The notes under the pieces: generated by a model
Told to the model about the DNA's origin: nothing
Seen by the model: only the letters and a program-made list of their open reading frames with translations
Databases searched by the model: none
Position numbers and translations under genes: made by a program
Source: Escherichia coli
Lineage (GTDB): Bacteria > Pseudomonadota > Gammaproteobacteria > Enterobacterales > Enterobacteriaceae
DNA: 64,000 bases
Assembly: GCF_030384885.1 (NCBI RefSeq)
Contig: NZ_CP128613.1
Direction: 5' to 3' (one strand)
Shown: positions 1 through 53,759 of the stretch, piece after piece
Numbering within the stretch: position 1 is the first letter of the stretch
How the letters are laid out: each line of letters starts with the position of its first letter

Positions 1-603
1 ACCCAGGCCGATGCAGCAGAGCAAGGAGTTGTGATCAAGCCTGCACAAAATTCCACCGTTGCTGTTGCGTCGCAACCGACAATTACGTATTCTGAGTCTT
101 CGGGTGAACAGAGTGCTAACAAAATGTTGCCGAACAACAAGCCAACTGGGACCACGGTCACAGCGCCTGTAACGGTACCAACAGCAAGCACAACCGAGCC
201 GACTGTCAGCAGTACATCAACCAGTGCGCCTATCTCCACCTGGCGCTGGCCGACTGAGGGCAAAGTGATCGAAACCTTTGGTGCTTCTGAGGGGGGCAAC
301 AAGGGGATTGATATCGCAGGCAGCAAAGGACAGGCAATTATCGCGACCGCAGATGGCCGCGTTGTTTATGCCGGTAACGCGCTGCGCGGCTACGGTAATC
401 TGATTATCATCAAACATAATGATGATTACCTGAGTGCCTACGCCCATAACGACACAATGCTGGTCCGGGAACAACAAGAAGTGAAGGCGGGGCAAAAAAT
501 AGCAACCATGGGTAGCACCGGAACCAGTTCAACACGCTTGCATTTTGAAATTCGTTACAAGGGGAAATCCGTAAACCCGCTGCGTTATTTGCCGCAGCGA
601 TAA
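1..603 (+). CDS. nlpD: NlpD lipoprotein (LysM/M23 peptidase-like), C-terminal part; 5' end lies outside the window
   Basis: ORF runs to window edge; M23 peptidase-like C-terminus; immediately upstream of rpoS as in E. coli. Confidence 0.85.
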
Positions 604-665
604 ATCGGCGGAACCAGGCTTTTGCTTGAATGTTCCGTCAAGGGATCACGGGTAGGAGCCACCTT

Positions 666-1658
666 ATGAGTCAGAATACGCTGAAAGTTCATGATTTAAA
701 TGAAGATGCGGAATTTGATGAGAACGGAGTTGAGGTTTTTGACGAAAAGGCCTTAGTAGAAGAGGAACCCAGTGATAACGATTTGGCCGAAGAGGAACTG
801 TTATCGCAAGGGGCCACACAGCGTGTGTTGGACGCGACTCAGCTTTACCTTGGTGAGATTGGTTATTCACCACTGTTAACGGCCGAAGAAGAAGTTTATT
901 TTGCGCGTCGCGCACTGCGAGGAGATGTTGCCTCCCGCCGCCGGATGATCGAGAGTAACTTGCGTCTGGTGGTAAAAATTGCCCGCCGTTATGGCAATCG
1001 TGGTCTGGCTTTGCTGGATCTTATCGAAGAGGGCAACCTGGGGCTGATCCGCGCGGTAGAGAAGTTTGACCCGGAACGTGGTTTCCGCTTCTCAACATAC
1101 GCAACCTGGTGGATTCGCCAGACGATCGAACGGGCGATTATGAACCAAACCCGTACTATTCGTTTGCCGATTCACATCGTAAAGGAGCTGAACGTTTACC
1201 TGCGAACCGCACGTGAGTTGTCCCATAAGCTGGACCACGAACCAAGTGCGGAAGAGATCGCAGAGCAGCTGGATAAGCCAGTTGATGACGTCAGCCGTAT
1301 GCTTCGTCTTAACGAGCGCATTACCTCGGTAGACACCCCGCTGGGTGGAGATTCCGAAAAAGCGTTGCTGGACATCCTGGCCGATGAAAAAGAAAACGGC
1401 CCGGAAGACACCACGCAAGATGACGATATGAAACAAAGCATCGTCAAATGGCTGTTCGAACTGAACGCCAAGCAGCGTGAAGTGCTGGCACGTCGATTCG
1501 GTTTGCTGGGATACGAAGCGGCAACACTGGAAGATGTAGGTCGTGAAATTGGCCTCACCCGTGAACGTGTTCGCCAGATTCAGGTTGAAGGCCTGCGCCG
1601 TTTGCGCGAAATCCTGCAAACGCAGGGGCTGAATATCGAAGCGCTGTTCCGCGAATAA
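666..1658 (+). CDS. rpoS: RNA polymerase sigma factor RpoS (sigma-38), 330 aa, full length
   Basis: Protein begins [21 protein letters not shown], recognisable as RpoS; start taken at internal ATG of the longer track ORF (630..1658). Confidence 0.95.
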
Positions 1659-1674
1659 GTAAGCATCTGTCAGA

Positions 1675-1708
1675 AAGGCCAGTCTCTTATGAGGCTGGCC
1701 TTTTTCTT
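1675..1708 (+). terminator. Rho-independent terminator after rpoS
   Basis: GC-rich hairpin ggccagtctc/gaggctggcc (1677..1700) followed by TTTTTCTTTT. Confidence 0.7.
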
Positions 1709-1778
1709 TTGTATGGGGAGTTGGTGTGTTTCGTCGCCTGGATAAGACACGTCAGCGTCCCATCCGGCAATCAACATC

Positions 1779-2186
1779 CTATTTGCTCATCATCTTGCGC
1801 ACCAGCTGCATAAACAGCTCCTGCTCTTCTCCACTCAAACGCCCCAAAAATTCCTCATCCACACTGTCGCCAATCGGTATCGCCGCAGCAAGTACCTTTT
1901 CTCCTTCGGCAGTCAGCCAGACAAAGCGTCGCCGCTTATCAGCGGTGTCATGTTCACGTCTGACTAAGCCACGATTTTCCATTCTTGCCAACATTTCTGC
2001 CAGCGTTGCTTTGGTGCTGACGGCTGCTTCCATCAGTGCCACCTGTTCGATACCAGGTTTATCAGCAATGGCGCGCATCACCGCGTACTGTGGTTTGGTC
2101 AGGTCAGGTAACTCGTGCTGCCAGCGGGCCGTATGCTGCTGAAAAAGCTGTCGTAACTGATGGAACGCTTTATTTCGTAACGCCAT
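1779..2186 (-). CDS. MarR/SlyA-family transcriptional regulator, 135 aa
   Basis: Size and winged-helix region typical of MarR family; divergent from the decarboxylase genes. Confidence 0.75.
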   Translation of the reverse strand: MALRNKAFHQLRQLFQQHTARWQHELPDLTKPQYAVMRAIADKPGIEQVALMEAAVSTKATLAEMLARMENRGLVRREHDTADKRRRFVWLTAEGEKVLAAAIPIGDSVDEEFLGRLSGEEQELFMQLVRKMMSK

Positions 2187-2301
2187 GTAAACTCCGGGCT
2201 AATTCTCTGTCGCTATCATAGCGGTTTTTCAGTGACGAAGAAGATGTTGTTACTTTTCAATCCTTGCCGCTGTGGAAATGAAGGAGTATGTTAATAATAA
2301 C

Positions 2302-2315
2302 GTTCGTATACGAAC
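2302..2315. promoter_or_regulatory. Perfect 14-bp palindrome GTTCGTATACGAAC, candidate MarR-type operator upstream of ecdB
   Basis: Read directly; lies 18 bp upstream of the ecdB ATG in the divergent intergenic region. Confidence 0.4.
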
Positions 2316-2332
2316 AATTAAGAGAGTAAGCA

Positions 2333-2926
2333 ATGAAACTGATCGTCGGGATGACAGGGGCTACCGGTGCGCCTCTTGGTGTGGCATTACTGCAAGCGCT
2401 GCGGGAGATGCCGAATGTCGAGACTCATCTGGTGATGTCGAAGTGGGCGAAAACCACTATTGAACTGGAAACGCCTTACAGCGCTCGCGATGTTGCCGCC
2501 CTCGCTGACTTCAGCCATAACCCGGCAGATCAGGCTGCGACCATCTCTTCCGGCTCCTTTCGTACCGACGGCATGATCGTTATTCCATGCAGTATGAAAA
2601 CGCTCGCCGGTATCCGCGCTGGTTACGCCGATGGTCTCGTAGGGCGCGCGGCGGACGTCGTGCTCAAAGAAGGCCGCAAACTGGTGCTGGTGCCGCGTGA
2701 AATGCCGCTTAGCACCATCCATCTCGAAAATATGCTCGCACTTTCGCGCATGGGCGTGGCGATGGTGCCGCCGATGCCTGCCTTTTATAACCATCCCGAA
2801 ACGGTAGATGACATTGTCCACCACGTGGTAGCCCGCGTGCTGGATCAATTTGGCCTCGAACATCCTCACGCCAGGCGCTGGCAAGGGTTGCCGCAGGCCC
2901 GGAATTTTTCTCAGGAGAATGAATAA
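2333..2926 (+). CDS. ecdB: UbiX-like flavin prenyltransferase (phenolic acid decarboxylase subunit B), 197 aa
   Basis: N-terminal MKLIVGMTGATGA flavoprotein motif and UbiX/Pad1 length; first gene of a B-C-D operon. Confidence 0.8.
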   Translation: MKLIVGMTGATGAPLGVALLQALREMPNVETHLVMSKWAKTTIELETPYSARDVAALADFSHNPADQAATISSGSFRTDGMIVIPCSMKTLAGIRAGYADGLVGRAADVVLKEGRKLVLVPREMPLSTIHLENMLALSRMGVAMVPPMPAFYNHPETVDDIVHHVVARVLDQFGLEHPHARRWQGLPQARNFSQENE

Positions 2927-4353
2927 TGGCATTTGATGATTTACGCAGCTTCTTACAGGCGCTTGATGACCACGGCCAGTTACTGAAAATCAGCGAAGAG
3001 GTGAACGCGGAACCGGATCTGGCAGCCGCTGCCAACGCCACCGGGCGTATCGGCGACGGCGCGCCCGCGCTGTGGTTTGATAATATTCGCGGCTTTATCG
3101 ATGCCCGCGTTGCAATGAACACCATCGGTTCTTGGCAGAACCACGCAATTTCTCTCGGTCTGCCGCCAAACACCCCGGTTAAAAAACAGATTGATGAGTT
3201 TATCCGCCGCTGGGATAACTTCCCGATAGCCCCGGAGCGCCGTGCGAATCCTGCCTGGGCGCAGAACACCGTCGATGGCGACGAGATCAATTTGTTCAAT
3301 ATCCTGCCGCTGTTTCGTTTAAACGATGGCGATGGCGGTTTCTATCTCGACAAAGCGTGCGTGGTTTCCCGCGATCCGCTCGATCCGGATAACTTCGGCA
3401 AGCAGAACGTCGGCATCTATCGCATGGAAGTGAAGGGTAAGCGTAAGCTCGGCCTGCAACCGGTGCCGATGCACGATATCGCCCTGCATCTGCATAAAGC
3501 GGAAGAACGTGGTGAAGATTTGCCAATTGCCATCACGCTGGGTAACGATCCGATCATCACCCTGATGGGCGCCACCCCGCTGAAATATGATCAATCGGAG
3601 TACGAAATGGCGGGCGCGCTACGCGAAAGCCCGTACCCGATCGCCACCGCCCCGCTGACCGGTTTTGATGTGCCGTGGGGTTCAGAAGTGATCCTCGAAG
3701 GGGTTATCGAAAGCCGCAAACGTGAAATCGAAGGGCCGTTCGGTGAGTTTACCGGGCACTACTCCGGTGGGCGCAACATGACCGTAGTGCGCATCGATAA
3801 AGTCTCTTACCGCACCAAACCGATTTTTGAATCGCTCTATCTCGGCATGCCGTGGACCGAAATCGACTACCTGATGGGGCCTGCCACCTGCGTGCCGCTT
3901 TACCAGCAGTTGAAAGCCGAGTTCCCGGAAGTGCAGGCGGTGAACGCTATGTACACCCACGGCCTGCTGGCGATTATCTCCACCAAAAAACGCTATGGCG
4001 GCTTTGCCCGCGCAGTGGGCCTGCGTGCGATGACCACGCCGCACGGTCTGGGTTATGTGAAGATGGTGATTATGGTCGATGAAGACGTTGACCCGTTCAA
4101 CCTGCCGCAGGTGATGTGGGCGCTCTCGTCGAAAGTGAACCCGGCAGGCGATCTGGTGCAACTGCCAAATATGTCCGTGCTGGAACTCGACCCAGGCTCA
4201 AGCCCGGCGGGGATCACCGATAAGCTGATTATCGACGCCACCACGCCTGTCGCCCCGGACAACCGTGGTCACTACAGCCAGCCGGTGGTGGACTTACCGG
4301 AAACCAAAGCCTGGGCTGAAAAACTGACCGCTATGCTGGCCGCACGTAAATAA
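2926..4353 (+). CDS. ecdC: UbiD-family phenolic acid (4-hydroxybenzoate/vanillate-type) decarboxylase subunit C, 475 aa
   Basis: UbiD-family size and sequence character; start overlaps ecdB stop (translational coupling). Confidence 0.8.
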   Translation: MAFDDLRSFLQALDDHGQLLKISEEVNAEPDLAAAANATGRIGDGAPALWFDNIRGFIDARVAMNTIGSWQNHAISLGLPPNTPVKKQIDEFIRRWDNFPIAPERRANPAWAQNTVDGDEINLFNILPLFRLNDGDGGFYLDKACVVSRDPLDPDNFGKQNVGIYRMEVKGKRKLGLQPVPMHDIALHLHKAEERGEDLPIAITLGNDPIITLMGATPLKYDQSEYEMAGALRESPYPIATAPLTGFDVPWGSEVILEGVIESRKREIEGPFGEFTGHYSGGRNMTVVRIDKVSYRTKPIFESLYLGMPWTEIDYLMGPATCVPLYQQLKAEFPEVQAVNAMYTHGLLAIISTKKRYGGFARAVGLRAMTTPHGLGYVKMVIMVDEDVDPFNLPQVMWALSSKVNPAGDLVQLPNMSVLELDPGSSPAGITDKLIIDATTPVAPDNRGHYSQPVVDLPETKAWAEKLTAMLAARK

Positions 4354-4363
4354 GGAGAACAAG

Positions 4364-4600
4364 ATGATTTGTCCACGTTGTGCCGATGAACAGATTGAAG
4401 TGATGGCGAAATCGCCGGTGAAAAATGTCTGGACGGTCTACCAGTGCCAGCATTGCCTTTATACATGGCGCGATACTGAACCGCTACGTCGCACCAGCCG
4501 CGAACATTATCCCGAAGCCTTCCGTATGACGCAGAAAGATATTGATGACGCACCGATGGTGCCGAGCATTCCGCCGCTGCTGGCGGAAGGTAAGCGCTAA
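4364..4600 (+). CDS. ecdD: Small decarboxylase subunit D (BsdD/YclD-like), 78 aa, Cys-rich
   Basis: Small ORF with CPRC ... CQHC motifs immediately after the UbiD gene, as in bsdBCD-type operons. Confidence 0.65.
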   Translation: MICPRCADEQIEVMAKSPVKNVWTVYQCQHCLYTWRDTEPLRRTSREHYPEAFRMTQKDIDDAPMVPSIPPLLAEGKR

Positions 4601-4602
4601 AT

Positions 4603-4631
4603 AAAAGGTCCGATGCCCATCGGACCTTTTT
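4603..4631. terminator. Bidirectional rho-independent terminator between convergent ecdD and ygbN
   Basis: Stem ggtccgat/atcggacc with loop gccc, flanked by AAAA and TTTTT. Confidence 0.7.
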
Positions 4632-4638
4632 ATTAAGG

Positions 4639-6003
4639 TCAAATTACCGCCCATACGCACCAGGTAATTAAGAATCCGGTAAAACCGAGAATGGTCGTTA
4701 ACACTGTCCAGGTTTTCAGACCGTCTGCTACCGACAACCCCAGATATTTGGTCACAATCCAGAACCCTGAGTCATTAATATGTGACGCGCCAAGCCCACC
4801 AAAGCAGGCTGCCAGCGTCACCAATACGCACTGAATCGGATTCAATCCCATCACAGCTTCTGAGAGTAACCCGCCGGTTGTCAGGATTGCTACGGTTGCT
4901 GACCCCTGCGATGCACGCAGCGCCAGTGAAATAATAAATGCGGCTGGTAACAGAGGCAGGTCAATCATTTGTAGCATGTTGGCAAGGGCTTTGCCGACGC
5001 CCGATTCCACCAGCACTTTGCCAAATACCCCTCCAGCACCAGTAACCAAAATCACTACCGCCGCAGTGGGAAGGGCTGAGCCCATAATGTCGCTGGTGTG
5101 TTGTAAGCTCCAGCCGCGACGTAAAGCCAATAACCAGAATGCCAGCACCAGCGCAATCATTAGAGCTACCATTGGTGAGCCGATCAGCTGTAGCGTACCA
5201 AGCAGGGGATGCGAAGGCGGCATCAGTGTTGCGGAAACCGTACCCGCCATGATAATCGCGATAGGAATAACAATTAGCGAGGTGACCAGCGCGACGCCCG
5301 GTGGATTTATTTTATCGCTTAATTTTGTCGCGCCTTCCTCACTGGCCGGAGCCAGTTGCATCTGTTCCAGTACTTCCACCGACATCGCATATTGGCGCTT
5401 ATTGATTATTTTCGCTGCAAAGTAGCCAACAATCCCTACGGGAATAGAAATCGCAATACCGATGATGGTTAGCCAGCCGATGTCTGCGTGGAGTAACCCC
5501 GCTGCGGCGACAGGGCCTGGATGCGGCGGTACCGCCACATGAACAGTTAGCATGATTCCAGCGACAGGCAGGCCAAATTTGAGTGGCGATATTTTGGCAA
5601 CCTTGGCAAAACCGTAAATGATTGGCGCAAGAATAATAAAGCCGACATCAAAGAAGACGGGAATACCGAGGAAGAACGCTGCCAGAGTCAGCGCAGCGAT
5701 AGTTCGTTTGTCACCTAACTTGCGACTGAAATAATTAGCCAGTGACTCTGCACCACCAGAGTGTTCGATCATACGCCCCAGCATAGCGCCCAGACCAATA
5801 ATAATAGTGACGGAACCAAGCACACCGCCCATCCCGGCGATCATCACTTTACCCACTTCGCCCGCCGGTATACCCGCCGCAAGTGCGACTAACAGGCTGA
5901 CGAGGAGCAGAGCAACGAATGGTTGTACCTTTGCCTTGATGACCAGCAGCAACAGCATGATTACGCCAGTTAACGCAATGCATAACAATGTAATTGTGGA
6001 CAT
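4639..6003 (-). CDS. ygbN: GntP-family permease (putative threonate/tetronate transporter), 454 aa
   Basis: Polytopic membrane protein of GntP type; position and length match ygbN. Confidence 0.85.
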   Translation of the reverse strand: MSTITLLCIALTGVIMLLLLVIKAKVQPFVALLLVSLLVALAAGIPAGEVGKVMIAGMGGVLGSVTIIIGLGAMLGRMIEHSGGAESLANYFSRKLGDKRTIAALTLAAFFLGIPVFFDVGFIILAPIIYGFAKVAKISPLKFGLPVAGIMLTVHVAVPPHPGPVAAAGLLHADIGWLTIIGIAISIPVGIVGYFAAKIINKRQYAMSVEVLEQMQLAPASEEGATKLSDKINPPGVALVTSLIVIPIAIIMAGTVSATLMPPSHPLLGTLQLIGSPMVALMIALVLAFWLLALRRGWSLQHTSDIMGSALPTAAVVILVTGAGGVFGKVLVESGVGKALANMLQMIDLPLLPAAFIISLALRASQGSATVAILTTGGLLSEAVMGLNPIQCVLVTLAACFGGLGASHINDSGFWIVTKYLGLSVADGLKTWTVLTTILGFTGFLITWCVWAVI

Positions 6004-6091
6004 GGGAAACCCTGTCTGAAAGTTATAGTTAACCTACCCCATCCGTAGATGGGGGGATGTATGGGTACGTTGTAATTAGGGATTTAACGAA

Positions 6092-6868
6092 TTAGCGCCA
6101 GGCGTCAAACCAGCCAAGCCCTTCTTCGGTGAGGCCACGAGGTTTATATTCACAACCGATCCAGCCCTGATATCCCACCTCATCGAACAGGCGGAACAGC
6201 CACGGATAGTTGATTTCTCCATCGTCCGGTTCATGTCGATCAGGTAGTCCGGCAATTTGTACGTGCGCATATTTCCCGGCGTAATCGCGGATTAAATGTG
6301 TCAGGTTGCCATCTACTTTTTGCGCATGGAAAGTATCTAGTTGAATAAACACGTTATCTCGCGCAACCTCTTCAACAATAGCCAGTGCCTGATACTGGCT
6401 GGAGAAGAGATAATGAGGCTTAACGCCGGGGCTGAGTGCTTCAACCAATATTCGCTTGCCGTGTGGCGCAAAGCGGTCGGCAGCGTAGCGGAGATTATCA
6501 ATAAATACTGCCCGGTACCGTTCAGCATCTTCGCCAGCGGGCACGACGCCTGCCATCACATGGACTTGTTCACAATTGAGCGCCAATGCATATTCCAGTG
6601 CCAGGTCGATGTCTGCGCGTGCTTCGTGCTCACGTCCAGGAAGGGCGGATAATCCCCATTCTCCCGCATTAATATCTCCGGGAGCGGTATTGAACAGCGC
6701 CAGTGTCAGATGGTTTTGCACCAGTTGCTTTTGGATTTGCAGGGGGGAGTAGTCATAGGGAAACAGAAATTCCACAGCATCGAACCCGGCTTTTCGCGCT
6801 GCGGCGAAGCGTTCAATAAAAGGCACTTCGGTGAACATCATGGATAAATTAGCTGCAAAACGAGGCAT
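6092..6868 (-). CDS. ygbM: Hydroxypyruvate-isomerase-like TIM-barrel enzyme (2-oxo-tetronate isomerase), 258 aa
   Basis: Xylose-isomerase-like fold protein in the ygbJKLMN operon position. Confidence 0.85.
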
Positions 6869-6872
6869 TGCA

Positions 6873-7511
6873 TTAACTCCTTAATTCCGCAATTTCACCT
6901 GCGGTCAGATAACGGATCGGGCGGTCACCGAGAATAAAAATCAGCTTTGCCGTTTCCTCCAGCTCTTCCATATTGTTGGCGGCTTCTTGCAGGCTTTCAC
7001 CGCAAACCACTGGGCCATGATTTGCCAGTAAAAAAGCCTGATTGTCTGCTGCCAGTTCCGCCAGATCCTGTGCGATGCGTTTATCGCCCGGTCGGTAATA
7101 GGGCACCAGCGGGACATTACCCATCCGCATCACCACGTATGGTGTGAACGGCCGAATAACGTTATTGCTGTCCAGCCCTTCCAGGCAGGAAAGCGCCGTC
7201 GACCACGTACTGTGCAAATGCACTACCGCTTTACAGCGCGGATTGTTGCGATACAGCGCCAGATGAAAGAGCACCTCTTTCGAGGGTTTGTCACCACTTA
7301 ACCATTCGCCATCCACGGCGACTTTGGAAAGCCGCTGCGGATCGAGATTGCCCAGGCATGAACCTGTCGGTGTCGCCAGTAAATTCCCATCAGGTAAAAG
7401 CAGCGACAGATTGCCAGCCGAACCGGTTGCATAGCCGCGCTGAAAGAATGAACTGGCAATCCGCGTCATCTCCTCTCGCAAAGACTGCTCTACTTTTGCG
7501 AAATCGCTCAT
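6873..7511 (-). CDS. ygbL: Class II aldolase/adducin-family protein (3-oxo-tetronate 4-phosphate decarboxylase), 212 aa
   Basis: Class II aldolase-like sequence; operon position. Confidence 0.85.
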
Positions 7512-8770
7512 GATAAAAACTCTCTTTGGGCTCGTGAAAAAAAGGCTTCATCACCGAAGTTGCCAGATTTAAGGGCGAGTGAGACAGGCTTATCCAGTGC
7601 GTTTACCCACGGCACGCCGGGGGAAATGGTTGGGCCAATATGAAACCCTTTTATTCCCAGGCTCTGTGTGACTACGCCGGAGGTCTCACCGCCTGCGACA
7701 ATAAAGCGTGTCACGCCTTCCGCTGCTAACTGCGCCGCTAGTTGAGAAAACAGTGTTTCTACTGCCTGACTGGCTTTTTGTGCACCGTATTGCTGTTGAA
7801 TTGCTGCCAATGCGTCAGTGCTGGCGGTGGCAAAAACCAGTGGAGCAAGTACACTTTCCTGGCCCAGAACCCACTCTGCCAGCTCGTGTGCATAAGCGGC
7901 CAGAGTTTCAATTGAGAGGCAGCGTGCAACATCAACTTCACGGGCTGGTGCAATTTGACGGTAATGTGCCACCTGGCGGTTGGTCATTTGAGAGCATGAA
8001 CCGGAGAGCACTACGCCGCGCCCTGCGAGCGGACGCCCTGCTTCGCGAGCCTGGTTACCATTTTCTTGCGCCCACTGCCGGGCCAGGCCAATTGCCAGAC
8101 CAGAACCGCCCGTTACCAGTGGGGCATCGCGCAAGGCTTCCCCCTGAATTTCCAGATGGTGTTCGGTCAGCGCATCAAGCACCGCGTAGCGATAGCCCTC
8201 TTGCTGTAAGCGAGCCAGCTCCTGACGAACGGCTTTCACACCTTGTTCGAAAACATGTGCTGAAACGACGCCGCAGCGCCCTGTGGATTGCGCTTCAACC
8301 AGACGGGGAAGATAGCTGTCGGTCATGGGATTTACCGGGTGATGGCGCATCCCGGATTCGGCCAGCAGTTGATTCATTACGAACAAATACCCCTGATAAA
8401 CCGTACGTCCGTTGACCGGCAGGGCCGGAGAGAAGACCGTAAACGGCGTGTCGAGAGCATCCATTAATGCATCGGTAACCGGGCCGATATTACCTTTCGC
8501 CGTACTGTCGAAAGTAGAGCAGTATTTGAAATAGATCTGTTTGCAACCTTGCTGTTGCAACCAGCTCAGAGCCGCCAGCGATTGCTGTGTGGCTTCAACC
8601 ACCGGACAGGAGCGCGTTTTCAGGCTGATCACCAGTGCGTCGATTGCTTCCGGCATTTTACCTGTTGGAACACCGTTAATTTGTACCGTTGGTAGACCGT
8701 TTTCCACCAGAAAACTGGCGATATCCGTCGCGCCGGTAAAATCATCGGCGATAACGCCAATCTTGATCAT
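7508..8770 (-). CDS. ygbK: Four-carbon acid sugar kinase (3-oxo-tetronate kinase), 420 aa as read
   Basis: N-terminal IADDFTGATD motif typical of this kinase family; start not verified against K-12 length. Confidence 0.8.
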   Translation of the reverse strand: MIKIGVIADDFTGATDIASFLVENGLPTVQINGVPTGKMPEAIDALVISLKTRSCPVVEATQQSLAALSWLQQQGCKQIYFKYCSTFDSTAKGNIGPVTDALMDALDTPFTVFSPALPVNGRTVYQGYLFVMNQLLAESGMRHHPVNPMTDSYLPRLVEAQSTGRCGVVSAHVFEQGVKAVRQELARLQQEGYRYAVLDALTEHHLEIQGEALRDAPLVTGGSGLAIGLARQWAQENGNQAREAGRPLAGRGVVLSGSCSQMTNRQVAHYRQIAPAREVDVARCLSIETLAAYAHELAEWVLGQESVLAPLVFATASTDALAAIQQQYGAQKASQAVETLFSQLAAQLAAEGVTRFIVAGGETSGVVTQSLGIKGFHIGPTISPGVPWVNALDKPVSLALKSGNFGDEAFFSRAQREFLS

Positions 8771-9675
8771 GATTTCGCTCCCGGTAGAGTGATGCCAGAG
8801 AAAATCTTGATAACTGCGCTATCGTCTTCTTTCCCGTAACCCGCGTTACTGGCGCTGGTGAACATATTCAATGCTGTTGAGGCCAATGGCAGCGGAAAGT
8901 GCAGGGCTTTGGCTGTATCGGCAACCAGACCAAGATCCTTAACAAAAATATCGACGGCTGAATGCGGGGTGTAATCGCCATCCACCACATGACGCATCCG
9001 GTTTTCGAACATCCAGGAATTTCCGGCGGCATTGGTCACGACGTCATACATCACATCCAGCGGGATCCCCGCACGGGCTGCAAGTGCCATCGCTTCGGCT
9101 CCGGCAGCAATATGTACGCCCGCTAACAACTGGTGAATAATTTTTACGGTCGAACCTAGTCCCGGTTCTGCACCTATGCGATAAACTTTTCCGGCAACGG
9201 CTTCCAGCACGGGTGCCAGTCGTTCAAAGGCAATATCGCTACCGGAGGCCATGACAGTCATTTCACCGTTAGCGGCTTTTACTGCACCACCAGAAACTGG
9301 CGCATCCAGCATTTCCAGATCGAATCCAGCCAGAGCGGTAGCAATTTCTTGCGCATCAGCACTGGCGATAGTGGAAGAAACCATTACTGCCGTACCGGGT
9401 TTCAGATGTTGTGCAACGCCTGTTTCACCAAACAGCACCTGTTTAACCTGGGCCGCATTGACCACCAGCACCAGCAGAGCGTCCAGTTTTTCGGCAAACG
9501 TCGCGGCGTTATCAGAAACCCCGCAAGCACCTGCCTCTTTCAACGTAGCGCAGGCATTGCTGTTTAGGTCTGCGCCCCAGGTAGAAAGACCTGCGCGGAC
9601 ACATGACAGTGCTGCTCCCATTCCCATTGACCCTAAGCCAACGATACCGACATGAAACTCAGATCCCGTTTTCAT
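8767..9675 (-). CDS. ygbJ: NAD-dependent 3-hydroxyisobutyrate-dehydrogenase-like enzyme (L-threonate dehydrogenase), 302 aa
   Basis: N-terminal GxxGxxG Rossmann motif (VGIVGLGSMG); operon position. Confidence 0.85.
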   Translation of the reverse strand: MKTGSEFHVGIVGLGSMGMGAALSCVRAGLSTWGADLNSNACATLKEAGACGVSDNAATFAEKLDALLVLVVNAAQVKQVLFGETGVAQHLKPGTAVMVSSTIASADAQEIATALAGFDLEMLDAPVSGGAVKAANGEMTVMASGSDIAFERLAPVLEAVAGKVYRIGAEPGLGSTVKIIHQLLAGVHIAAGAEAMALAARAGIPLDVMYDVVTNAAGNSWMFENRMRHVVDGDYTPHSAVDIFVKDLGLVADTAKALHFPLPLASTALNMFTSASNAGYGKEDDSAVIKIFSGITLPGAKS

Positions 9676-9870
9676 CTGCTCTCCTTGTTAATTTAAGTGA
9701 TATTTTGTTTGATAATGTGAATATAAGCGCTGGAAGATAACGATATGGTGAGCTGATTCACAAAAATTAACATTGTGTGTTATTTTATGTGAACTAAGCG
9801 TTAGTTGCGCCGCGCACGTTTCGCAGGCAAATAGCGTAGAATGTCAGCAGGACAAAGGAAGGAGCAAAAG

Positions 9871-10638
9871 TTGATACCCGTAGAGCGTCGCCAAATCATC
9901 CTTGAGATGGTAGCTGAAAAAGGCATTGTCAGTATTGCTGAACTAACGGACAGAATGAATGTGTCACATATGACCATTCGTCGGGATTTACAAAAACTGG
10001 AGCAGCAGGGAGCCGTTGTGCTGGTGTCCGGAGGCGTCCAGTCTCCGGGACGCGTGGCGCATGAACCTTCTCATCAGGTAAAAACTGCGCTGGCAATGAC
10101 GCAAAAAGCGGCTATTGGCAAGCTGGCGGCAAGTCTTGTTCAGCCGGGAAGTTGTATCTATCTGGATGCGGGAACGACCACGCTAGCGATAGCACAGCAT
10201 CTGATTCACATGGAGTCACTGACTGTGGTCACAAACGATTTCGTTATTGCGGACTACTTGCTCGACAACAGTAATTGCACAATTATTCACACTGGCGGTG
10301 CAGTATGTCGGGAAAACCGTTCCTGTGTCGGGGAAGCCGCTGCGACCATGCTGCGCAGCCTGATGATTGATCAGGCTTTTATTTCTGCATCGTCATGGAG
10401 TGTGCGGGGGATTTCTACGCCAGCGGAAGATAAAGTCACGGTGAAACGGGCGATTGCCAGTGCCAGCCGCCAGCGAGTTTTGGTCTGTGATGCGACGAAA
10501 TATGGTCAGGTGGCGACATGGCTGGCGTTACCATTAAGCGAGTTTGATCAGATTATTACAGACGACGGTTTGCCGGAGAGTGCCAGTCGCGCGCTGGCGA
10601 AGCAGGATCTCTCTTTGCTGGTAGCGAAAAATGAATAA
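9871..10638 (+). CDS. ygbI: DeoR-family transcriptional regulator, 255 aa from a TTG start
   Basis: DeoR HTH N-terminus; AAGGAAGGA RBS upstream of TTG at 9871; the longer track ORF starts at 9841. Confidence 0.75.
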   Translation: MIPVERRQIILEMVAEKGIVSIAELTDRMNVSHMTIRRDLQKLEQQGAVVLVSGGVQSPGRVAHEPSHQVKTALAMTQKAAIGKLAASLVQPGSCIYLDAGTTTLAIAQHLIHMESLTVVTNDFVIADYLLDNSNCTIIHTGGAVCRENRSCVGEAAATMLRSLMIDQAFISASSWSVRGISTPAEDKVTVKRAIASASRQRVLVCDATKYGQVATWLALPLSEFDQIITDDGLPESASRALAKQDLSLLVAKNE

Positions 10639-10688
10639 TGGCCTGCAATAACACCGGGTTACTCATGCTTCACAGAAGAAGCATGAGA

Positions 10689-11345
10689 CTACTTTATTTT
10701 ATAAAATGACAGGCGCCCACTTTCCGGCGAACCGGTATCAATATAAACCTGGTTGGCGAATGTCTGGATGTTATCAAACATCATATGTCCGAAGATAAAG
10801 CAGTCGGCGCCGTTTATTTCCTGTAACTCGCCTTTGAGCGATTTCAGTACGCGATCAACAGGCCAGAGCAATTCTCTCTCCGCTATTTCTTTGCCAAAGA
10901 GATATTCATTCCCCGGATAATCTGCATGCGCGATGACATATTTTATTATGTCGTTAGTGATTTAAACAATATGCGGAAGATTATGAAAACGTAGCAACAG
11001 GTCTATTGCTTCTTTTTGTTCCGTATCACTTAACTCAAAGAACCAGTCGCCACCACTGGCAAGCCACATATTGCCATCGCCGGTCGCGAACGCATCCAAT
11101 GCCATCGCTTCATGGTTGCCTTTGACCGATGTAAACCAGGGCTGGTTTAGCAGGCGCAGCACGTTAAGACTCTCCGGCCCACGATCAATATTATCGCCGA
11201 CAGAAATAAGTAAGTCGGTTTCAGGGCAAAAAGAGAGTTGATGTAAGCGGGATTGTAATAATTGATAGTCACCATGAATATCACCAACGGCCCATATATG
11301 GCGATAGTGATGGGCATTAATTTTTTGATAGCGTGTAGATGGCAT
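10689..11345 (-). pseudogene. pphB: Serine/threonine protein phosphatase 2 gene interrupted by an in-frame TAA (rc of 10962..10964) at codon 128 of 218
   Basis: Two track ORFs (127 aa and 60 aa) are in the same frame with 30 sense codons between them; GDxHG, GDxxDRG and GNHE motifs lie before the stop, the GH motif after. Confidence 0.7.
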
Positions 11346-11450
11346 GGTTTTACCCTGTAAAATAAGATTTCCTATTATACAGGGTATTTTTATTTGATTC
11401 GTCAGTTGTCGTTAATATTCCCGATAGCAAAAAACTATCGGGAATTGTTA

Positions 11451-14012
11451 TTACACCAGACTCTTCAAGCGATAAATCCATTCCAGCGCCTGACGCGGGG
11501 TAAGTGAATCCGGGTCAAGATTTTCCAGCGCTTCGACCGCTGGCGACGTTTCTTCTGGCACTGAAAGCAAAGACATTTGCGTACCATCCACTTGCGTAGC
11601 GGCGGCGTTCGGCGAAATGCTTTCCAGCTCACGCAGTTTTTGCCGTGCGCGCTTAATAACCTCTTTTGGTACGCCCGCCAGAGCTGCAACCGCCAGACCG
11701 TAGCTTTTGCTCGCCGCGCCATCCTGCACGCTGTGCATAAAGGCAATGGTGTCGCCGTGCTCCAGCGCATCAAGATGCACGTTGGCGACGCCTTCCATTT
11801 TCTCCGGCAGTTGAGTCAGTTCAAAGTAGTGGGTAGCAAACAACGTCAACGCTTTAATCTTATTCGCCAGATTTTCAGCGCACGCCCATGCCAGCGACAG
11901 ACCATCGTAAGTGGACGTTCCGCGCCCAATCTCATCCATCAACACCAGGCTGTACTCCGTGGCGTTATGCAGAATATTGGCGGTTTCGGTCATCTCCACC
12001 ATAAAGGTTGAACGCCCGGATGCCAGATCGTCAGCCGCGCCCACACGGGTAAAGATACGGTCAATCGGGCCAATCTCGACTTTTTGCGCCGGTACGTAGC
12101 TGCCGATATAGGCCATCAGCGCAATCAGTGCGGTCTGGCGCATATAGGTACTTTTACCGCCCATGTTCGGACCGGTGATGATCAACATGCGACGCTGCGG
12201 CGACAGGTTCAGCGGGTTAGCGATAAACGGCTCATTCAGTACCTGTTCAACCACCGGATGGCGACCTTCGGTAATGCGAATGCCCGGTTTATCAATGAAG
12301 GTCGGGCAGGTGTAGTTCAGGGTATAGGCCCGTTCCGCCAGGTTTACCAGTACGTCGAGTTCTGCCAGTGCGCTCGCGCTCTGTTGCAACGCTTCCAGAT
12401 GCGGCAACAGCAGGTCGAACAACTCTTCATAAAGCTGTTTTTCCAGTGCCAGCGCTTTACCTTTCGAGGTGAGTACTTTGTCTTCATACTCTTTTAGCTC
12501 TGGAATAATGTAGCGTTCGGCGTTTTTCAGCGTCTGGCGACGCATATAGTTGATGGGTGCGAGATGGCTTTGTCCACGGCTAATCTGAATGTAATAACCA
12601 TGCACCGCGTTAAAGCCAACTTTCAGCGTGTCCAGGCCGGTACGTTCACGCTCGCGAACTTCCAGACGCTCCAGATAATCTGTCGCGCCGTCAGCCAGCG
12701 CTCGCCACTCATCCAGCTCTTCGTTATAGCCTGATGCGATAACACCACCGTCGCGTACCAGCACCGGCGGTGTGTCGATGATTGCTCGCTCCAGCAGATC
12801 GCGCAGCTCTGCAAACTCGCCCATTTTCTCACGCAGCGCCTGTACCGGTGCACTAGCGACATTTTCTAACTGCGCACGCAGCTCCGGCAGTTGCTGGAAA
12901 GCGTGACGCATACGGGCCAGATCGCGTGGGCGGGCAGTCCGTAAAGCCAGACGTGCCAGAATACGTTCCAGGTCGCCGACCTGACGCAGTACCGGCTGCA
13001 GCTCAGCGGTGAAATCCTGCAATGCGCCAATAGTTTGCTGGCGCTCAAGCAACACGCGGGTATCGCGCACTGGCATATGCAGCCAGCGTTTCAGCATTCG
13101 ACTCCCCATCGGCGTTACAGTGCAATCGAGCACGGAAGCCAGCGTGTTTTCCGCACCGCCCGCCAGGTTCTGGGTAATTTCCAGGTTACGACGCGTCGCG
13201 GCATCCATAATGATGCTGTCCTGCTCACGTTCCATAGTGATAGAACGAATATGCGGCAGAGTCGTACGTTGAGTATCTTTCGCATACTGCAACAGACAAC
13301 CGGCGGCACAAAGTCCGCGCGGCGCGTTCTCGACGCCAAAACCGACCAGATCGCGAGTGCCAAATTGTAGATTCAACTGCTGGCGCGCGGTGTCGATTTC
13401 AAACTCCCACAGCGGGCGACGGCGCAAGCCGCGACGACCTTCAATCAGCGACATTTCAGCAAAATCTTCTGCATACAGCAGTTCCGCCGGATTAGTGCGT
13501 TGCAGTTCTGCCGCCATCGTTTCGCGGTCAGCCGGTTCACTCAGGCGAAAACGACCGGAACTGATATCCAGCGTCGCGTAGCCGAAACCTTTACTGTCCT
13601 GCCAGATAGCCGCCAGCAGGTTGTCCTGACGCTCCTGCAACAGCGCTTCATCGCTGATGGTGCCCGGCGTAACGATACGCACAACTTTGCGCTCAACCGG
13701 ACCTTTGCTGGTCGCCGGATCGCCAATTTGTTCGCAGATGGCAACGGACTCGCCCTGATTCACCAGTTTGGCGAGGTAGTTTTCCACCGCATGGTATGGA
13801 ATCCCCGCCATCGGGATCGGCTCTCCCGCTGAAGCGCCGCGTTTGGTCAGTGAAATATCCAGCAGTTGTGACGCACGTTTTGCGTCGTCATAAAACAGTT
13901 CGTAAAAGTCACCCATCCGGTAGAACAGCAGGATCTCGGGATGCTGGGCTTTCAGCTTGAGATACTGCTGCATCATTGGCGTGTGGGCGTCGAAATTTTC
14001 TATTGCACTCAT
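11451..14012 (-). CDS. mutS: DNA mismatch repair protein MutS, 853 aa
   Basis: Length and Walker A region (GPNMGGKST) typical of MutS. Confidence 0.95.
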
Positions 14013-14298
14013 GGAGTTATGTCCGGTTCCCTGATTTTAAATGGGGTGTGATGATTTTTATTTTCGTTGTAATCACATAAGGCGCACATGATACCGGAGT
14101 TAATCATTTCAGGGGAAGAAGCGAACGGCGAGTTCTTGATGTCGGTTCCGCGAAAAATGCTGCTTTGCAGCTTTTGCGTGATGCTTATGAAGCAAGTACG
14201 CAAAATTGTATCAGTTGGCGAACCCTTCTTCTTCAGAGACATAGTCCCCTTTAAAATTAAGTTGTAATATAAATGCACCTTAAGAGTATGGAGGCAGC

Positions 14299-14652
14299 AT
14301 GTCCGGCAAGCGTACCTCTCGTGAAAAACTGACGATTAAAAAAATGATCGATCTTTATCAAGCGAAATGCCCGCAGGCGTCAGCAGAGCCGGAGCATTAC
14401 GAAGCGCTGTTTGCCTACGCGCAAAAACGGCTGGATAAATGTGTGTTCGGCGAAGACAAACCCGCCTGTAAGCAGTGCCCGGTGCACTGTTACCAGTCTG
14501 CAAAGCGTGAAGAGATGAAACAGATTATGCGTTGGGCCGGGCCGCGCATGCTGTGGCGTCATCCGATCCTAACCGTACGCCATCTCATTGATGACAAGCG
14601 TCCGGTGCCGGAGTTGCCAGAAAAATATCGCCCGAAAAAACCTCGTGAATAG
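14299..14652 (+). CDS. ygbA: Small Cys-rich protein YgbA (nitrosative-stress regulon member), 117 aa
   Basis: Position between mutS and fhlA; recalled as ygbA. Confidence 0.75.
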   Translation: MSGKRTSREKLTIKKMIDLYQAKCPQASAEPEHYEALFAYAQKRLDKCVFGEDKPACKQCPVHCYQSAKREEMKQIMRWAGPRMLWRHPILTVRHLIDDKRPVPELPEKYRPKKPRE

Positions 14653-14690
14653 TATACCGGACAGGCAGATCTGTCCGGCACCTCATGCAG

Positions 14691-16769
14691 TTAAACCAAT
14701 GCCGATTTATCAATCCCCAGTCGTTTCATCCGTGATAGCAGTGTGGTGCGTTTTAGTCCCAGACGTTGCGCCGCGCCTTTCGGCCCGGCAACCACGCCGT
14801 TAGTCTCTTTTAATACACGCACAATTAGCTGATATTCATCTTCGCCCTCCTGAGCGACGACCGTTGCAGTCGGCGGCGTTTTAGGTTCCGGTAAAGCAAT
14901 ATCAGGCAATGACAGCTGCAGCACGTTGCCACGTGTCAGCAATACCGCGCGCTCAATGACGTTTTCCAGCTCGCGTACGTTACCTGGCCACTCCATATTG
15001 CTCAACGCGCGCAACGTTTCGGCAGGAATGCTGTCGATATTACGCCCCAGACGGCGGGCAATTTTAAAAGTAAAGGCTTTCGCCAGCAGCGGAATATCTT
15101 CCGGACGCTCGCGTAGTGGCGGCAGGTGGATCGGGAATACGTTCAGACGGTAATAGAGATCGCTACGGAACTCGCGGTCGGCAACCATTTTTTTCAGATC
15201 GCGGTTAGTCGCGGCAATTAAACGCACGTCCGTCTGTATAATTTTATTACTGCCGAGACGTTCAAACTCCTGTTCCTGTAATACACGCAGCAACTTCGGT
15301 TGTAACTCCAGCGGCATATCACCCACTTCATCGAGGAACAGGGAGCTTTTATCCGCCAGTTCAAAACGACCGATACGCTGGGCGCTGGCTCCGGTAAACG
15401 CACCACGCTCATGACCAAACAGATCGCTTTCTAACAATCCGGCAGGCATCGCCGCGCAGTTCATTTTTACCATGCGGCGATTATTACGCCCACTGAGATT
15501 ATGGATCGCGCGGGCAATCAGCTCTTTACCGGTGCCAGTTTCACCGAGGATCAGAACTGTACTGTCACTTTGTGCCACCATTTCAACTTGTTTAAGCACG
15601 CTGTACATGGCTTCACTGCGACCAATAATCTCTCCAAATTCACTATCAACATTGTTGAGCTGCTCGGTCAGGGCGAGATTTTCATCAACCAGTCGTTCTT
15701 TCAGACGATGAATTTCCTGATAGGCAAGGGCGTTATCGACAGCGATTGCCACACGTTCGGCAATCTGGCGCAGTAAATTCAGATTGGTCGTGGTAAACAC
15801 TTTCTCTTCGCATTGCGCCAGTTTCAGCACGCCCAGCATGGTGTCGCCAGACATCAGCGGTAACAGGCACAAGGTTTGAATCTGGTTGCCCCAGGTGTCG
15901 AACAACATGCGTTCGTAGGGGGCTAAATTATCTCGCTCGTGGAGATTAATCAGCAGCATCTCTTTGCTTTTAAACACGCGTTCGGTGAGGGTTCCAGCTT
16001 CATCGACTTCGCTCTGTTCGTGAGCGGGATGCTGTTTATCAAGATAGTGAGTGGAGTAGATGTTGAGTTTGTTTTTACGGTGGCTGCGTAAGACGATGCT
16101 TATATCGTCAATGTCGAAATAGTAATGGATTTCTTTGGCGACTTCGCTGACCAGTTCGTCCATATCCAGGCGAGAAAGCACCGCGTTGGTGATGGCAACC
16201 AGGATGCGGAAGTTATCGCGTTCCCGGCATAACAACTCATAGTCGACATTATTGACGACGCGGCTCTGGATTTGTTCGGTGACGACAGAAATGATCTGCG
16301 TAAAAGTTTGCAGGCGATTGAACTCTTTTTCACTCCACGGGCGATCGTCATAACGAATAAATTCACAGCCACCAAAAATATGCCCTTCCGCCGCCAGTGG
16401 CATCAGGCAATAGTGACCAAATTTGGGGTATAGCCCACCAGCGGCCAGCTGCGGCCAGGTTTCACAAAATTCTTCGTAACTGCAATGCAGTGTATCAGGG
16501 CGCGACAAAATGCTGCGCACCGGACCGTGTGCCAGAACAGTTTCGTCTTCATAATTTATGGGGGTGTCTTTTTCACGCGACGCGTAATAAGACGCACGTT
16601 GAGTCTGCGCTTGCCACAACACAATAGCTGCATTGTCGGCGAGCGCAGAACGCTTTACCAATTGCGAAAGAGCCTCACACAGCGAGGCCAGATCGGGCTG
16701 CTGCAATAGTGTCCGAGTGATGTCGAACAACCCTTGTTGTCCGAGATCACTCATCGGTGTATATGACAT
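14691..16769 (-). CDS. fhlA: Formate hydrogenlyase transcriptional activator FhlA (sigma54-dependent), 692 aa
   Basis: GAF domains plus sigma54-interaction AAA+ domain ([14 protein letters not shown]); start at internal ATG (MSYTPMSDLGQ). Confidence 0.9.
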   Translation of the reverse strand: MSYTPMSDLGQQGLFDITRTLLQQPDLASLCEALSQLVKRSALADNAAIVLWQAQTQRASYYASREKDTPINYEDETVLAHGPVRSILSRPDTLHCSYEEFCETWPQLAAGGLYPKFGHYCLMPLAAEGHIFGGCEFIRYDDRPWSEKEFNRLQTFTQIISVVTEQIQSRVVNNVDYELLCRERDNFRILVAITNAVLSRLDMDELVSEVAKEIHYYFDIDDISIVLRSHRKNKLNIYSTHYLDKQHPAHEQSEVDEAGTLTERVFKSKEMLLINLHERDNLAPYERMLFDTWGNQIQTLCLLPLMSGDTMLGVLKLAQCEEKVFTTTNLNLLRQIAERVAIAVDNALAYQEIHRLKERLVDENLALTEQLNNVDSEFGEIIGRSEAMYSVLKQVEMVAQSDSTVLILGETGTGKELIARAIHNLSGRNNRRMVKMNCAAMPAGLLESDLFGHERGAFTGASAQRIGRFELADKSSLFLDEVGDMPLELQPKLLRVLQEQEFERLGSNKIIQTDVRLIAATNRDLKKMVADREFRSDLYYRLNVFPIHLPPLRERPEDIPLLAKAFTFKIARRLGRNIDSIPAETLRALSNMEWPGNVRELENVIERAVLLTRGNVLQLSLPDIALPEPKTPPTATVVAQEGEDEYQLIVRVLKETNGVVAGPKGAAQRLGLKRTTLLSRMKRLGIDKSALV

Positions 16770-16842
16770 TTTGTTCTTCCAGGAAAGCACCGCAAAGCGG
16801 TGCAAAAGGTCATTGACTAACTATAGGAGATTTAGAATTTTA

Positions 16843-17853
16843 TTAGCATATACGCGGAAGCGGTTCGGCGTGTGGTAAATCGAGGGTTCGTTTCACGCCA
16901 TACAGACCGGCAAGACGAACACCTTTACGTTCCACCACTTCACCAATCAGCGCCGCGTCTTTCCCCAGTGGATGGGAATGTAACGCCGCCAGCACTTGCT
17001 CTGCTGCGTTGCGTTCAACGGCGATCACCAGTTTGCCTTCGTTGGCAAAGTTAAGGGCGTCCAGCCCCAGCAGTTCGCAAACGCCGCGCACGGCAGGTTT
17101 AACCGGCAGTGCCGCTTCTGAAATTTCAATACCACAACCGCAGGCTGCCGCGAACTCATGAACTACCGCGTTCACTCCACCACGGGTGGCGTCACGCAGT
17201 GCCTTCACACCGGGAATATCACGCAGCGTCTGGATGAGCGGCGTCAGCACTGCGCAGTCGCTGACCAGTTCGCCATCCAGCCCCAGTTGCTCGCGCAGAT
17301 TAAGAATAGTTGCTCCGTGGTCGCCGAGAGTTCCACTCACCAGCAGAACATCGCCTGCGGTTAGCGTCTGTGCGCCCCAGTGAATATTCGCCGGGATCGC
17401 GCCCATGCCAGCGGTGTTGATAAACAGTTTATCTGCCGCGCCGCGTTGCACCACTTTAGTGTCGCCAGTAACGATGGCAATGCCTGCCGCGCGGGCGGTT
17501 TCTGCCATGCTGGTCACCACGGCTTTTAGCGTCTCCATCGGCAATCCCTCTTCGAGGATAAAGCCACAAGAGAGATAGCGCGGAATAGCGCCACTGACCG
17601 CAACGTCATTCGCGGTGCCACAAATCGCCAGCTTGCCAATATTGCCACCAGGAAAGAACAGCGGGTCGATGACGTAGCTGTCGGTGGAGAACGCCAGCCG
17701 GTCGCCTTCTGCCACCAGCTGCGCCAGCTCAAGGCGCGCCTGGTCTTCCTGTTCTGCCAGCCACGGATTGGCAAAGGCTTCCATAAACAGGCTGTTGATT
17801 AATTGCTGCATCGCCTGGCCGCCGCTACCGTGGGCGAGTTGGATATTATTCAC
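16843..17853 (-). CDS. hypE: Hydrogenase maturation protein HypE, 336 aa
   Basis: Recognisable HypE sequence and hyp operon position. Confidence 0.9.
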   Translation of the reverse strand: MNNIQLAHGSGGQAMQQLINSLFMEAFANPWLAEQEDQARLELAQLVAEGDRLAFSTDSYVIDPLFFPGGNIGKLAICGTANDVAVSGAIPRYLSCGFILEEGLPMETLKAVVTSMAETARAAGIAIVTGDTKVVQRGAADKLFINTAGMGAIPANIHWGAQTLTAGDVLLVSGTLGDHGATILNLREQLGLDGELVSDCAVLTPLIQTLRDIPGVKALRDATRGGVNAVVHEFAAACGCGIEISEAALPVKPAVRGVCELLGLDALNFANEGKLVIAVERNAAEQVLAALHSHPLGKDAALIGEVVERKGVRLAGLYGVKRTLDLPHAEPLPRIC

Positions 17854-18971
17854 GCTTCACTCTCCTGCTGACGATACTGATACCACGCGGCGCACGCTCC
17901 TTCGGAGGAAACCATCAGCGCACCAAACGCGGTTTGAGGATTACAGGTGTTACCAAACAGCGGGCATTGATGCGGCTTACATTTGCCCGTCAAGACTTCG
18001 CCACAACGCGCGCGCGGGTCATCGCAGACCTGCTGCGGTGCCGGGCGGAAATGCGCTTCGGCGTCAAATCGTTGATAATCCGGCGTCAGGTGTACACCAG
18101 AAGATTCAATCACGCCTAAGCCGCGCCATTCGCTGTCGCCGTTGACGCAGAAGACATCCGCAATCGCCTGTTGCGCCAGCAGGTTACCGGCATCCGGCAC
18201 CACCCGACGATACTGATTCTCCACCTTGCTGTGGGCCGCTATTTTCTGCTCCACCAGCATGACCACGCCTTGTAGTAGATCAAGCGGTTCGAATCCAGCA
18301 ACCACCAGAGGACGATGAAAATCACTGGCGATAAAATTATAGGCGTCGGTGCCGATAACCATACTGACGTGGCCCGGCGCGAGGAACGCATCGATACCGT
18401 TATCCGGCTGTTCCAGCAAACTGCGTAGCGTTGGGATCAGCGTAATATGCTGGCAGAAAAAGTAAAAATTTTGCACATCGCGGGCTTTCGCCTGTTGCAG
18501 AGTGATGGCCGTCGTCGGCATGGTGGTTTCAAACCCTAAGCCGAAGAACACCACTTTACGAGTTGGATTCTCCTGCGCCAGTTTTAACGCATCCATTGGC
18601 GAGTAAACGATGCGAACATCGGCACCGCGCGCTTTTGCCTGTAACAGCGACCCCTGTTTCCCCGGCACGCGCATGGCGTCGCCAAAGGTACAGAAGATGA
18701 CTTCCGGATGGCTGGCAATCTCCACGCAGGTGTCGATTCTTCCCATCGGCAGTACACATACCGGGCAACCCGGACCGTGGATAAACTCAACGTTTTCCGG
18801 CAGTAACTGGTCGAGGCCGAATTTAAAAATGGCGTGGGTATGACCGCCGCACACTTCCATAATCCGCAGAGGGCGTTCAGCGGTGTAAGAGAGATGTGAA
18901 GCACGTTCGCGTAGATGCTCAATTAACTGCATCACCTGTTCCGGCGCGCGATATTCATCAACAAAACGCAT
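17850..18971 (-). CDS. hypD: Hydrogenase maturation protein HypD, 373 aa
   Basis: Cys-rich HypD; operon position. Confidence 0.9.
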   Translation of the reverse strand: MRFVDEYRAPEQVMQLIEHLRERASHLSYTAERPLRIMEVCGGHTHAIFKFGLDQLLPENVEFIHGPGCPVCVLPMGRIDTCVEIASHPEVIFCTFGDAMRVPGKQGSLLQAKARGADVRIVYSPMDALKLAQENPTRKVVFFGLGFETTMPTTAITLQQAKARDVQNFYFFCQHITLIPTLRSLLEQPDNGIDAFLAPGHVSMVIGTDAYNFIASDFHRPLVVAGFEPLDLLQGVVMLVEQKIAAHSKVENQYRRVVPDAGNLLAQQAIADVFCVNGDSEWRGLGVIESSGVHLTPDYQRFDAEAHFRPAPQQVCDDPRARCGEVLTGKCKPHQCPLFGNTCNPQTAFGALMVSSEGACAAWYQYRQQESEA

Positions 18972-19243
18972 TATTTTTCCTCGCCATACAACAGCGCGCC
19001 GACATCCGGCTCAACGTCAAACATGTTTTGTAAGGCGTCGAGGGTGTCGCGCGCTTCGGCTTCATTAATTACGCTCATGGCAAAGCCAACGTGAACCAGT
19101 ACCCACTGGCCCACGCGTGGCTGACCGTTTTCATCGCAGCTGCCGACTAACGTTAGATCGACGTCGCGCTGAATACCGCAGACGTCGACTTTCGCCTGGT
19201 TGCCGTCAATGGTGCGGATCTGGCCGGGAACGCCTATACACAT
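18971..19243 (-). CDS. hypC: Hydrogenase maturation chaperone HypC, 90 aa
   Basis: Begins MCIGVPG; overlaps the hypB stop. Confidence 0.9.
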
Positions 19244-20106
19244 CGCTGTGTCTCCAGCCAGTTCAGCCACTGGTCCATCCCTTCGCCGCTGGTGGCGGAA
19301 ATAAGGATGATTTCAATTTCTGGATTGACTTCGCGGGCGCAGGCGATGCACTTCTCAACGTCGAAATTGAGATACGGTAGCAGGTCAACTTTGTTGAGCA
19401 GCATCAGTGAGGCGGCGGCAAACATATGTGGATATTTCAGCGGTTTGTCTTCACCTTCGGTAACGGAAAGCACCGCCACTTTGTGTTTTTCACCAAGATC
19501 GAAGCTCGCCGGACATACGAGGTTGCCAACGTTTTCGATAAACAGAATACCGTTATCGTCCAGTGGCAGGCGCGGCGCGGCGTCGGCAATCATCTGTGCG
19601 TCAAGATGGCAACCTTTACCGGTATTCACCTGAATCGCTGGCGTGCCGGTAGCGCGAATGCGCGCGGCATCGTTCACGGTTTGCTGGTCACCTTCAATAA
19701 CTGCGCACGGAACGCTGTCTTTCAGGCGCATCAAGGTTTCCGTCAGCAGGGTGGTTTTACCGGAACCAGGGCTGGAAACCAGGTTGAGTACCAACTGATT
19801 GCGGGCAGCAAAGCGCGCTCGGTTGCGTTCAGCCAGACGGTTGTTTTTGTCTAGCACGTCAATTTCGACTTCCAGCATCCGACGCTGGCTCATGCCCGGC
19901 GCGTGAGTGCCCGCTTCGCCATGACCGTAATGCAGGTCGCCTTCTTCAGTCTGGCTGGGGGTAAATTCAGGCGCTTTAATGCCGGTGATTTTCATCTTCG
20001 GGCGTGCCGCCGGGGCAAATGGCGCGCTACGAAACGCGGAATGAGGGTTATGTTCATCACCCTCGATATACAGGTTGCCTTCACCGCAACCGCATGTTGT
20101 ACACAT
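19234..20106 (-). CDS. hypB: Hydrogenase nickel-incorporation GTPase HypB, 290 aa
   Basis: His-rich N-terminus and GSGKTT P-loop. Confidence 0.9.
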
Positions 20107-28701: not shown

Positions 28702-29013
28702 ATGCACATCATTTCGAAAGCGCCATTTGAAGAGTGCGCGCGCAAATATCCTAACGACGCTCTGGCTTTACACTCATTGTATCGGGTTATTAAGGAAACG
28801 GATTTTTCTACGCCAGAAGAAATGCGAACGGCGTTTCCCAACCTCGACAATTTTAAATATCGTAACAAATGGTACGTTCTGGATGTAGGCGGGAACAATC
28901 TTAGGGTTATTGCCTACATAAACTTTGTTAATAAGCGGTTCTTTGTGAAGCACATAACGAATCATGCCGAGTATGACAAACTGACACGTTACTACAGAGA
29001 GAACAGAGAATGA
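28702..29013 (+). CDS. HigB-like type II toxin (RelE/ParE-superfamily mRNA interferase), 103 aa
   Basis: Close architectural and sequence resemblance to K-12 HigB/YgjN (VFPNLDNFKY, VGGNNLRV); AAGGAAG RBS; not placed here in K-12 as I recall. Confidence 0.75.
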   Translation: MHIISKAPFEECARKYPNDALALHSLYRVIKETDFSTPEEMRTAFPNLDNFKYRNKWYVLDVGGNNLRVIAYINFVNKRFFVKHITNHAEYDKLTRYYRENRE

Positions 29014-53682: not shown

Positions 53683-53759
53683 GCATCCGTAGCTCAGCTG
53701 GATAGAGTACTCGGCTACGAACCGAGCGGTCGGAGGTTCGAATCCTCCCGGATGCACCA
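53683..53759 (+). tRNA. argY: tRNA-Arg (ACG), copy 2
   Basis: Identical 77-nt sequence to copy 1. Confidence 0.9.

Follow-up and report, generated by a model that had tools for sequence, protein, structure and literature searches.

Gene content and reading frame of the mutS–ygbI interval

The window, that is, the whole 64,000-base stretch of Escherichia coli DNA analysed here, carries on its minus strand between mutS and ygbI a phosphatase gene, pphB, whose translation over 10689..11345 runs in a single frame and meets its sole internal stop after ...NLPHIV. The features of this interval are as follows.

10662..10687, no strand assigned: terminator-like hairpin (stem 10 bp) separating the 3' ends of pphB and ygbI, which converge (consensus scan only)
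10689..11345, minus strand: coding region of pphB (prpB, serine/threonine phosphatase 2), 218 codons plus a terminal TAG, interrupted at codon 128
10689..10871, minus strand: putative 60-aa ORF with a TTG start at codon 159, in frame, with a Shine–Dalgarno-like GGAG 6 nt upstream
10692..10961, minus strand: remnant past the stop, codons 129-218, encoding H140, G186-H187 and IDTG 202-205
10962..10964, minus strand: premature stop, codon 128 changed from GAA (Glu) to TAA, read as the reverse complement of the window letters
10965..11345, minus strand: N-terminal fragment of 127 aa, with GDIHG, GDNIDRG and GNHE present
11417..11445, no strand assigned: terminator-like hairpin with an 11 bp stem, in the mutS–pphB spacer after mutS (consensus scan only)

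In the list of open reading frames the gene appears as a 127-aa ORF (10962..11345) and a 60-aa ORF (10689..10871, TTG start) that share a frame and are separated by 90 bases, or 30 sense codons; the codon sum is 127 + 1 + 30 + 60 = 218. This is the length of the NCBIfam PphB model (218 positions), and K-12, like all other genomes inspected, has a coding sequence of 657 bp. Upstream and on the same strand lies mutS, intact at 853 aa, and downstream lies the convergent ygbI; the order mutS–pphB–ygbI is identical in the annotated E. coli genomes inspected, and the gene between mutS and ygbI is annotated as pphB, protein-serine/threonine phosphatase, in every one of them.

We scored the locus against the PphB equivalog model (NCBIfam NF007425, 218 positions, curated cutoff 332 bits). 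The repaired ORF, in which GAA is restored and which equals the allele of E. coli 2013C-4282, reached 458.7 bits over positions 1-218, whereas the actual 127-aa product reached 266.7 bits over positions 1-127 only, below the cutoff; the DNA is therefore the pphB gene, while its encoded product is not a full PphB member. The gene shares with E. coli PphB/PrpB (P55799; NF007425) both the conserved position between mutS and the convergent ygbI and the 218-codon length, and the repaired protein shares 88% amino-acid identity with K-12 PphB; it differs in the stop at codon 128 and the resulting 127-aa product, which has no full-length match to the model above the cutoff. A preliminary description of this DNA had named the gene pphB and read it as two ORFs in one frame, 30 sense codons apart and 218 codons in total, broken by a single TAA after ...LPHIV (reverse complement of 10962..10964). 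Translation and ORF list agree on the frame and on codon 128 as the sole internal stop, and both the model match of the repaired ORF and the mutS–pphB–ygbI arrangement bear out the name; the description had allowed that PphB itself might be only about 127 aa long, but its length is 218 aa.

The stop codon is a derived single-base substitution

Among complete genomes the nearest is E. coli 2013C-4282 (NZ_CP027579.1), which is separated from the window by 10 substitutions, without any indel, over 64,000 bases (99.98% identity over 64 kb). Its pphB (allele WP_046081189.1) is intact and encodes 218 aa, and the sole difference between the two pphB genes is the change from GAA (Glu128) to TAA, in which G is replaced by T on the coding strand, corresponding to C-to-A at window position 10964 on the plus strand. 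The outgroups N96 and MFDS1022581 both have C at this position, as 2013C-4282 does, and the TAA is therefore the derived state. In the comparison with other alleles, which had been proposed earlier as a check, Glu is found at codon 128 in all seven of the other alleles compared, including those of K-12, O157 and ST131.

Codons 129-218 show no further change and keep 100% identity with the intact allele. Because both sides of the stop match that allele except at one base, the split frame is not a chance arrangement of ORFs; because the 90 codons 3' of the stop have gathered no extra changes, the stop is recent. It removes 91 of the 218 residues (42%) of a gene that has an intact orthologue in a close relative, the pattern by which a nonsense pseudogene is recognized.

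By polarity, six of the 10 differences from 2013C-4282 are derived in the window lineage and three in that of 2013C-4282, with one not polarised. The six comprise two synonymous changes, one intergenic change, hypB A290V, norV L466I and the pphB nonsense mutation. All six window-lineage substitutions (at 1511, 8896, 10964, 19238, 28613 and 38086) are G:C to A:T or G:C to T:A; six is too small a sample for inferring a mutational defect, and mutS is intact. The substitution at 19238 falls in the hypC/hypB overlap, where it is synonymous in hypC codon 2 and alters the last HypB residue (the A290V change).

Residues kept and lost by the truncated product

The 127-residue fragment contains the three N-terminal motifs of the PPP (lambda-phosphatase-like) family, GDxHG, GDxxDRG and GNHE, in the form of GDIHG at residues 21-25 (with D22 and H24), GDNIDRG at 50-56 (D51, D54 and R55) and GNHE at 76-79 (N77 and H78). 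The C-terminal ligands of the family and its (I/L/V)D(S/T)G motif, which is conserved in all bacterial PPPs (PPP motif definitions, PMC535813), are absent from the polypeptide and encoded only 3' of the TAA. The Pfam Metallophos match of the 127-aa product covers profile positions 2-97 of 191 only.

The closest solved structure is that of the bacteriophage lambda Ser/Thr phosphatase (PDB 1G5B; E = 7.5e-57, residues 6-216 aligned), and we read the residue losses from this alignment, mapped onto pphB residue numbers. The metal-ligand positions of the lambda enzyme discussed here are all conserved in the intact pphB allele; the truncated product, in contrast, stops short of the equivalents of His139 and His186, which are H140 and H187 (the latter in G186-H187), respectively. 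We take lambda His139 to be a ligand of the same metal site as His186. Loss of 42% of the chain together with two metal ligands should abolish activity, and we predict from the sequence that the fragment is almost certainly inactive. The preliminary description had likewise proposed that the product keeps GDxHG, GDxxDRG and GNHE, loses C-terminal catalytic His residues and is probably inactive; the placement of H140 and H187 after the stop agrees with the first two points and lends support to the third.

pphB is widely maintained and occasionally disrupted in E. coli

Across 5,426 complete genomes, pphB was matched in 5,405 and at a coverage of at least 80% in 5,364, which makes it close to a core gene. 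Intact alleles have dN/dS values of 0.10-0.21; intact pphB is thus under purifying selection, and the protein is normally maintained. The gene is non-essential.

At the nucleotide level pphB is hyper-polymorphic in E. coli. Between the window allele and those of K-12 and ST131, identity is 88.6% (loci L019, L020 and L021 were compared), an unusual divergence in DNA that corresponds to a dS of 0.44 against K-12 and of up to 0.49 among the compared alleles, and 4,755 of 5,406 pphB records fall in the 80-90% identity band. In contrast, positions 1..20000 of the window, which include pphB, are 96-99% identical to the matching genomes listed. This divergence is suggestive of old lineages of alleles, or of recombination within the mutS–rpoS variable region. 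Large deletions removing mutS and pphB have been described during acute infections (PMC7845604).

pphB is also lost independently in other E. coli, in which we found the following disrupted alleles (coordinates are those of each extracted locus).

L009 1501-1959 (ERR12735846): nonsense, E153 GAA to TAA at codon 153, ST131-like allele
L012 1501-2902: insertion of a Mu-like prophage (Mom/Com genes) after codon 158
L015 1501-2293: insertion of IS1 after codon 174
L022 3001-4209: IS1 insertion plus internal deletion, strain 1506, annotated as a pseudogene

Like the window allele, these lose the C-terminal part of the protein, and that of ERR12735846 does so by the same GAA-to-TAA change; their positions, mechanisms and allele backgrounds, however, differ from those of E128*. 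A search of the literature for reports of pphB pseudogenes returned nothing on the E128* allele.

Recurrent loss raises the question of whether inactivation is selected in some niches, or whether the 127-aa fragment itself acts as a metal- or substrate-binding decoy. The independent hits (E128*, E153*, IS1 twice and one Mu-like prophage) speak for this, as do mobile-element insertion hotspots reported near pphA and pphB (bioRxiv 10.1101/527788). Against it, gross loss is rare, as the coverage among complete genomes indicates, intact alleles evolve under the purifying selection described above, and the nonsense allele is found on 3 contigs as against 198 for its intact parent (WP_046081189.1); moreover, in our judgement, which is not a calculation, a few disruptions among many thousand genomes are what any non-essential gene would display. 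We therefore regard adaptive loss, or an adaptive role of the fragment, as very improbable, and think it just as improbable that recurrent inactivation reflects niche selection for loss with the window allele as one adaptive case as opposed to neutral decay.

Were such selection real, it might act via altered Cpx/HtrA envelope-stress signalling. Passages in PMC6610125 and PMC6213207 attribute to Missiakas and Raina (1997) the description of PrpA and PrpB as phosphatases that act in the cell's response to misfolding of extracytoplasmic proteins, and a passage in the former describes PphA (PrpA) as a positive modulator of CpxR/CpxA and of htrA transcription; an equivalent Cpx/htrA statement for PrpB itself was not found in the literature searched.

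The premature stop recurs in other read sets

The exact 127-aa product is also encoded on contigs of three SRA-run assemblies (SRR34489103, SRR35948513 and SRR35967224). At 11.5, 7.8 and 1.1 kb, these contigs match the window with 100% identity, including the TAA and the other window-specific substitutions that they cover; the three runs may all come from one strain sequenced repeatedly, or may even be the source reads of this assembly, and are not necessarily independent strains. A resequencing of the stop position, as the first description of the locus had proposed, is thus partly supplied by public data, and it returns TAA again.

These contigs bear on the reading that the TAA arose by mistake in sequencing or assembly and that the pphB of this strain is truly intact. 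Such an error would account for a window that differs from the intact allele by a single base, and for the 5,426 complete RefSeq E. coli genomes, none of which has the identical (TAA) allele and among which the only pphB that is at least 99% identical, that of 2013C-4282, has GAA. A one-off base-calling error is unlikely, however, because the truncated product and its surrounding DNA recur in assemblies from three different accessions, which, even if they represent one strain re-sequenced, weigh strongly against it; the change is also a substitution, not the homopolymer indel that is typical of long-read errors. We consider an error very improbable.

Readthrough and reinitiation

It is barely credible that useful amounts of full-length PphB are made despite the stop, whether through readthrough or with the help of an ochre suppressor tRNA encoded elsewhere: the 90 downstream codons are perfectly preserved, as expected if they were still translated, but their preservation fits a recent origin equally well given only six derived substitutions in 64 kb, none of the seven ARAGORN calls within the window (Ser-gct, Arg-acg and Arg-tcg) is a suppressor tRNA, and inspection by eye of the bases right after the stop (TAA ATCACTAACGAC) brought no suggestive recoding signal to notice. 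Both release factors, RF1 and RF2, recognise UAA, which is the least leaky of the E. coli stop codons and is not a codon for selenocysteine or pyrrolysine.

We also considered reconstitution of the enzyme from two fragments, the second initiated at the TTG of codon 159. Residues 128-158, including His140, would be absent from both fragments, and reconstitution was therefore rejected.

A probable recent null allele of pphB

Taken with the recurrence of the TAA in other read sets, the comparison with 2013C-4282 makes it very probable that the window holds a recent, lineage-specific pphB null allele (E128*), created by one transversion, with an inactive product and with no downstream gene affected. 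We propose that a single G-to-T transversion turned Glu128 (GAA) into an ochre TAA, so that translation would end after residue 127 with the three N-terminal metal- and phosphate-binding motifs in place. Because 42% of the fold would be missing from the fragment, and with it His140 and His187, two ligands of the second metal site, the binuclear active site could not form, which would make pphB functionally a pseudogene. We infer that the loss is neutral and without polar effects. Indeed, no gene downstream of pphB is transcribed in the same direction, ygbI converges on it and terminator-like hairpins bracket it, so a polar effect on its neighbours is not expected from this arrangement.

On this account a known, dispensable phosphatase gene has become an ordinary pseudogene, and its correct annotation would be pphB pseudogene (E128*), rather than either two small ORFs or an intact phosphatase. 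This strain and its close relatives would be natural pphB nulls, for which 2013C-4282 offers an almost isogenic intact comparator; such a null/intact pair could suit the study of the poorly defined physiological role of PphB/PrpB.

Other features of the window

Between luxS and emrB, at 57919..59735 on the minus strand, lies a two-gene cassette. One gene encodes a 370-aa protein whose C-terminal domain is AAA_33 kinase-like, the other a 235-aa protein of the RNA_ligase family (PF09414). From its domains the cassette looks like an RNA-repair pair; it had no match among PADLOC defence systems. At 28702..29429 on the plus strand, between hycI and ascB, the annotation of the near-identical 2013C-4282 places a toxin gene of the HigB family and an antitoxin-like helix-turn-helix gene. 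Finally, the ARAGORN calls of tRNA-Arg(tcg) at 53703..53774 and 53977..54048 on the minus strand are antisense to, and overlap, the plus-strand tRNA-Arg(acg) repeats; the near-palindromic tRNA sequence probably gives rise to them as artefacts.
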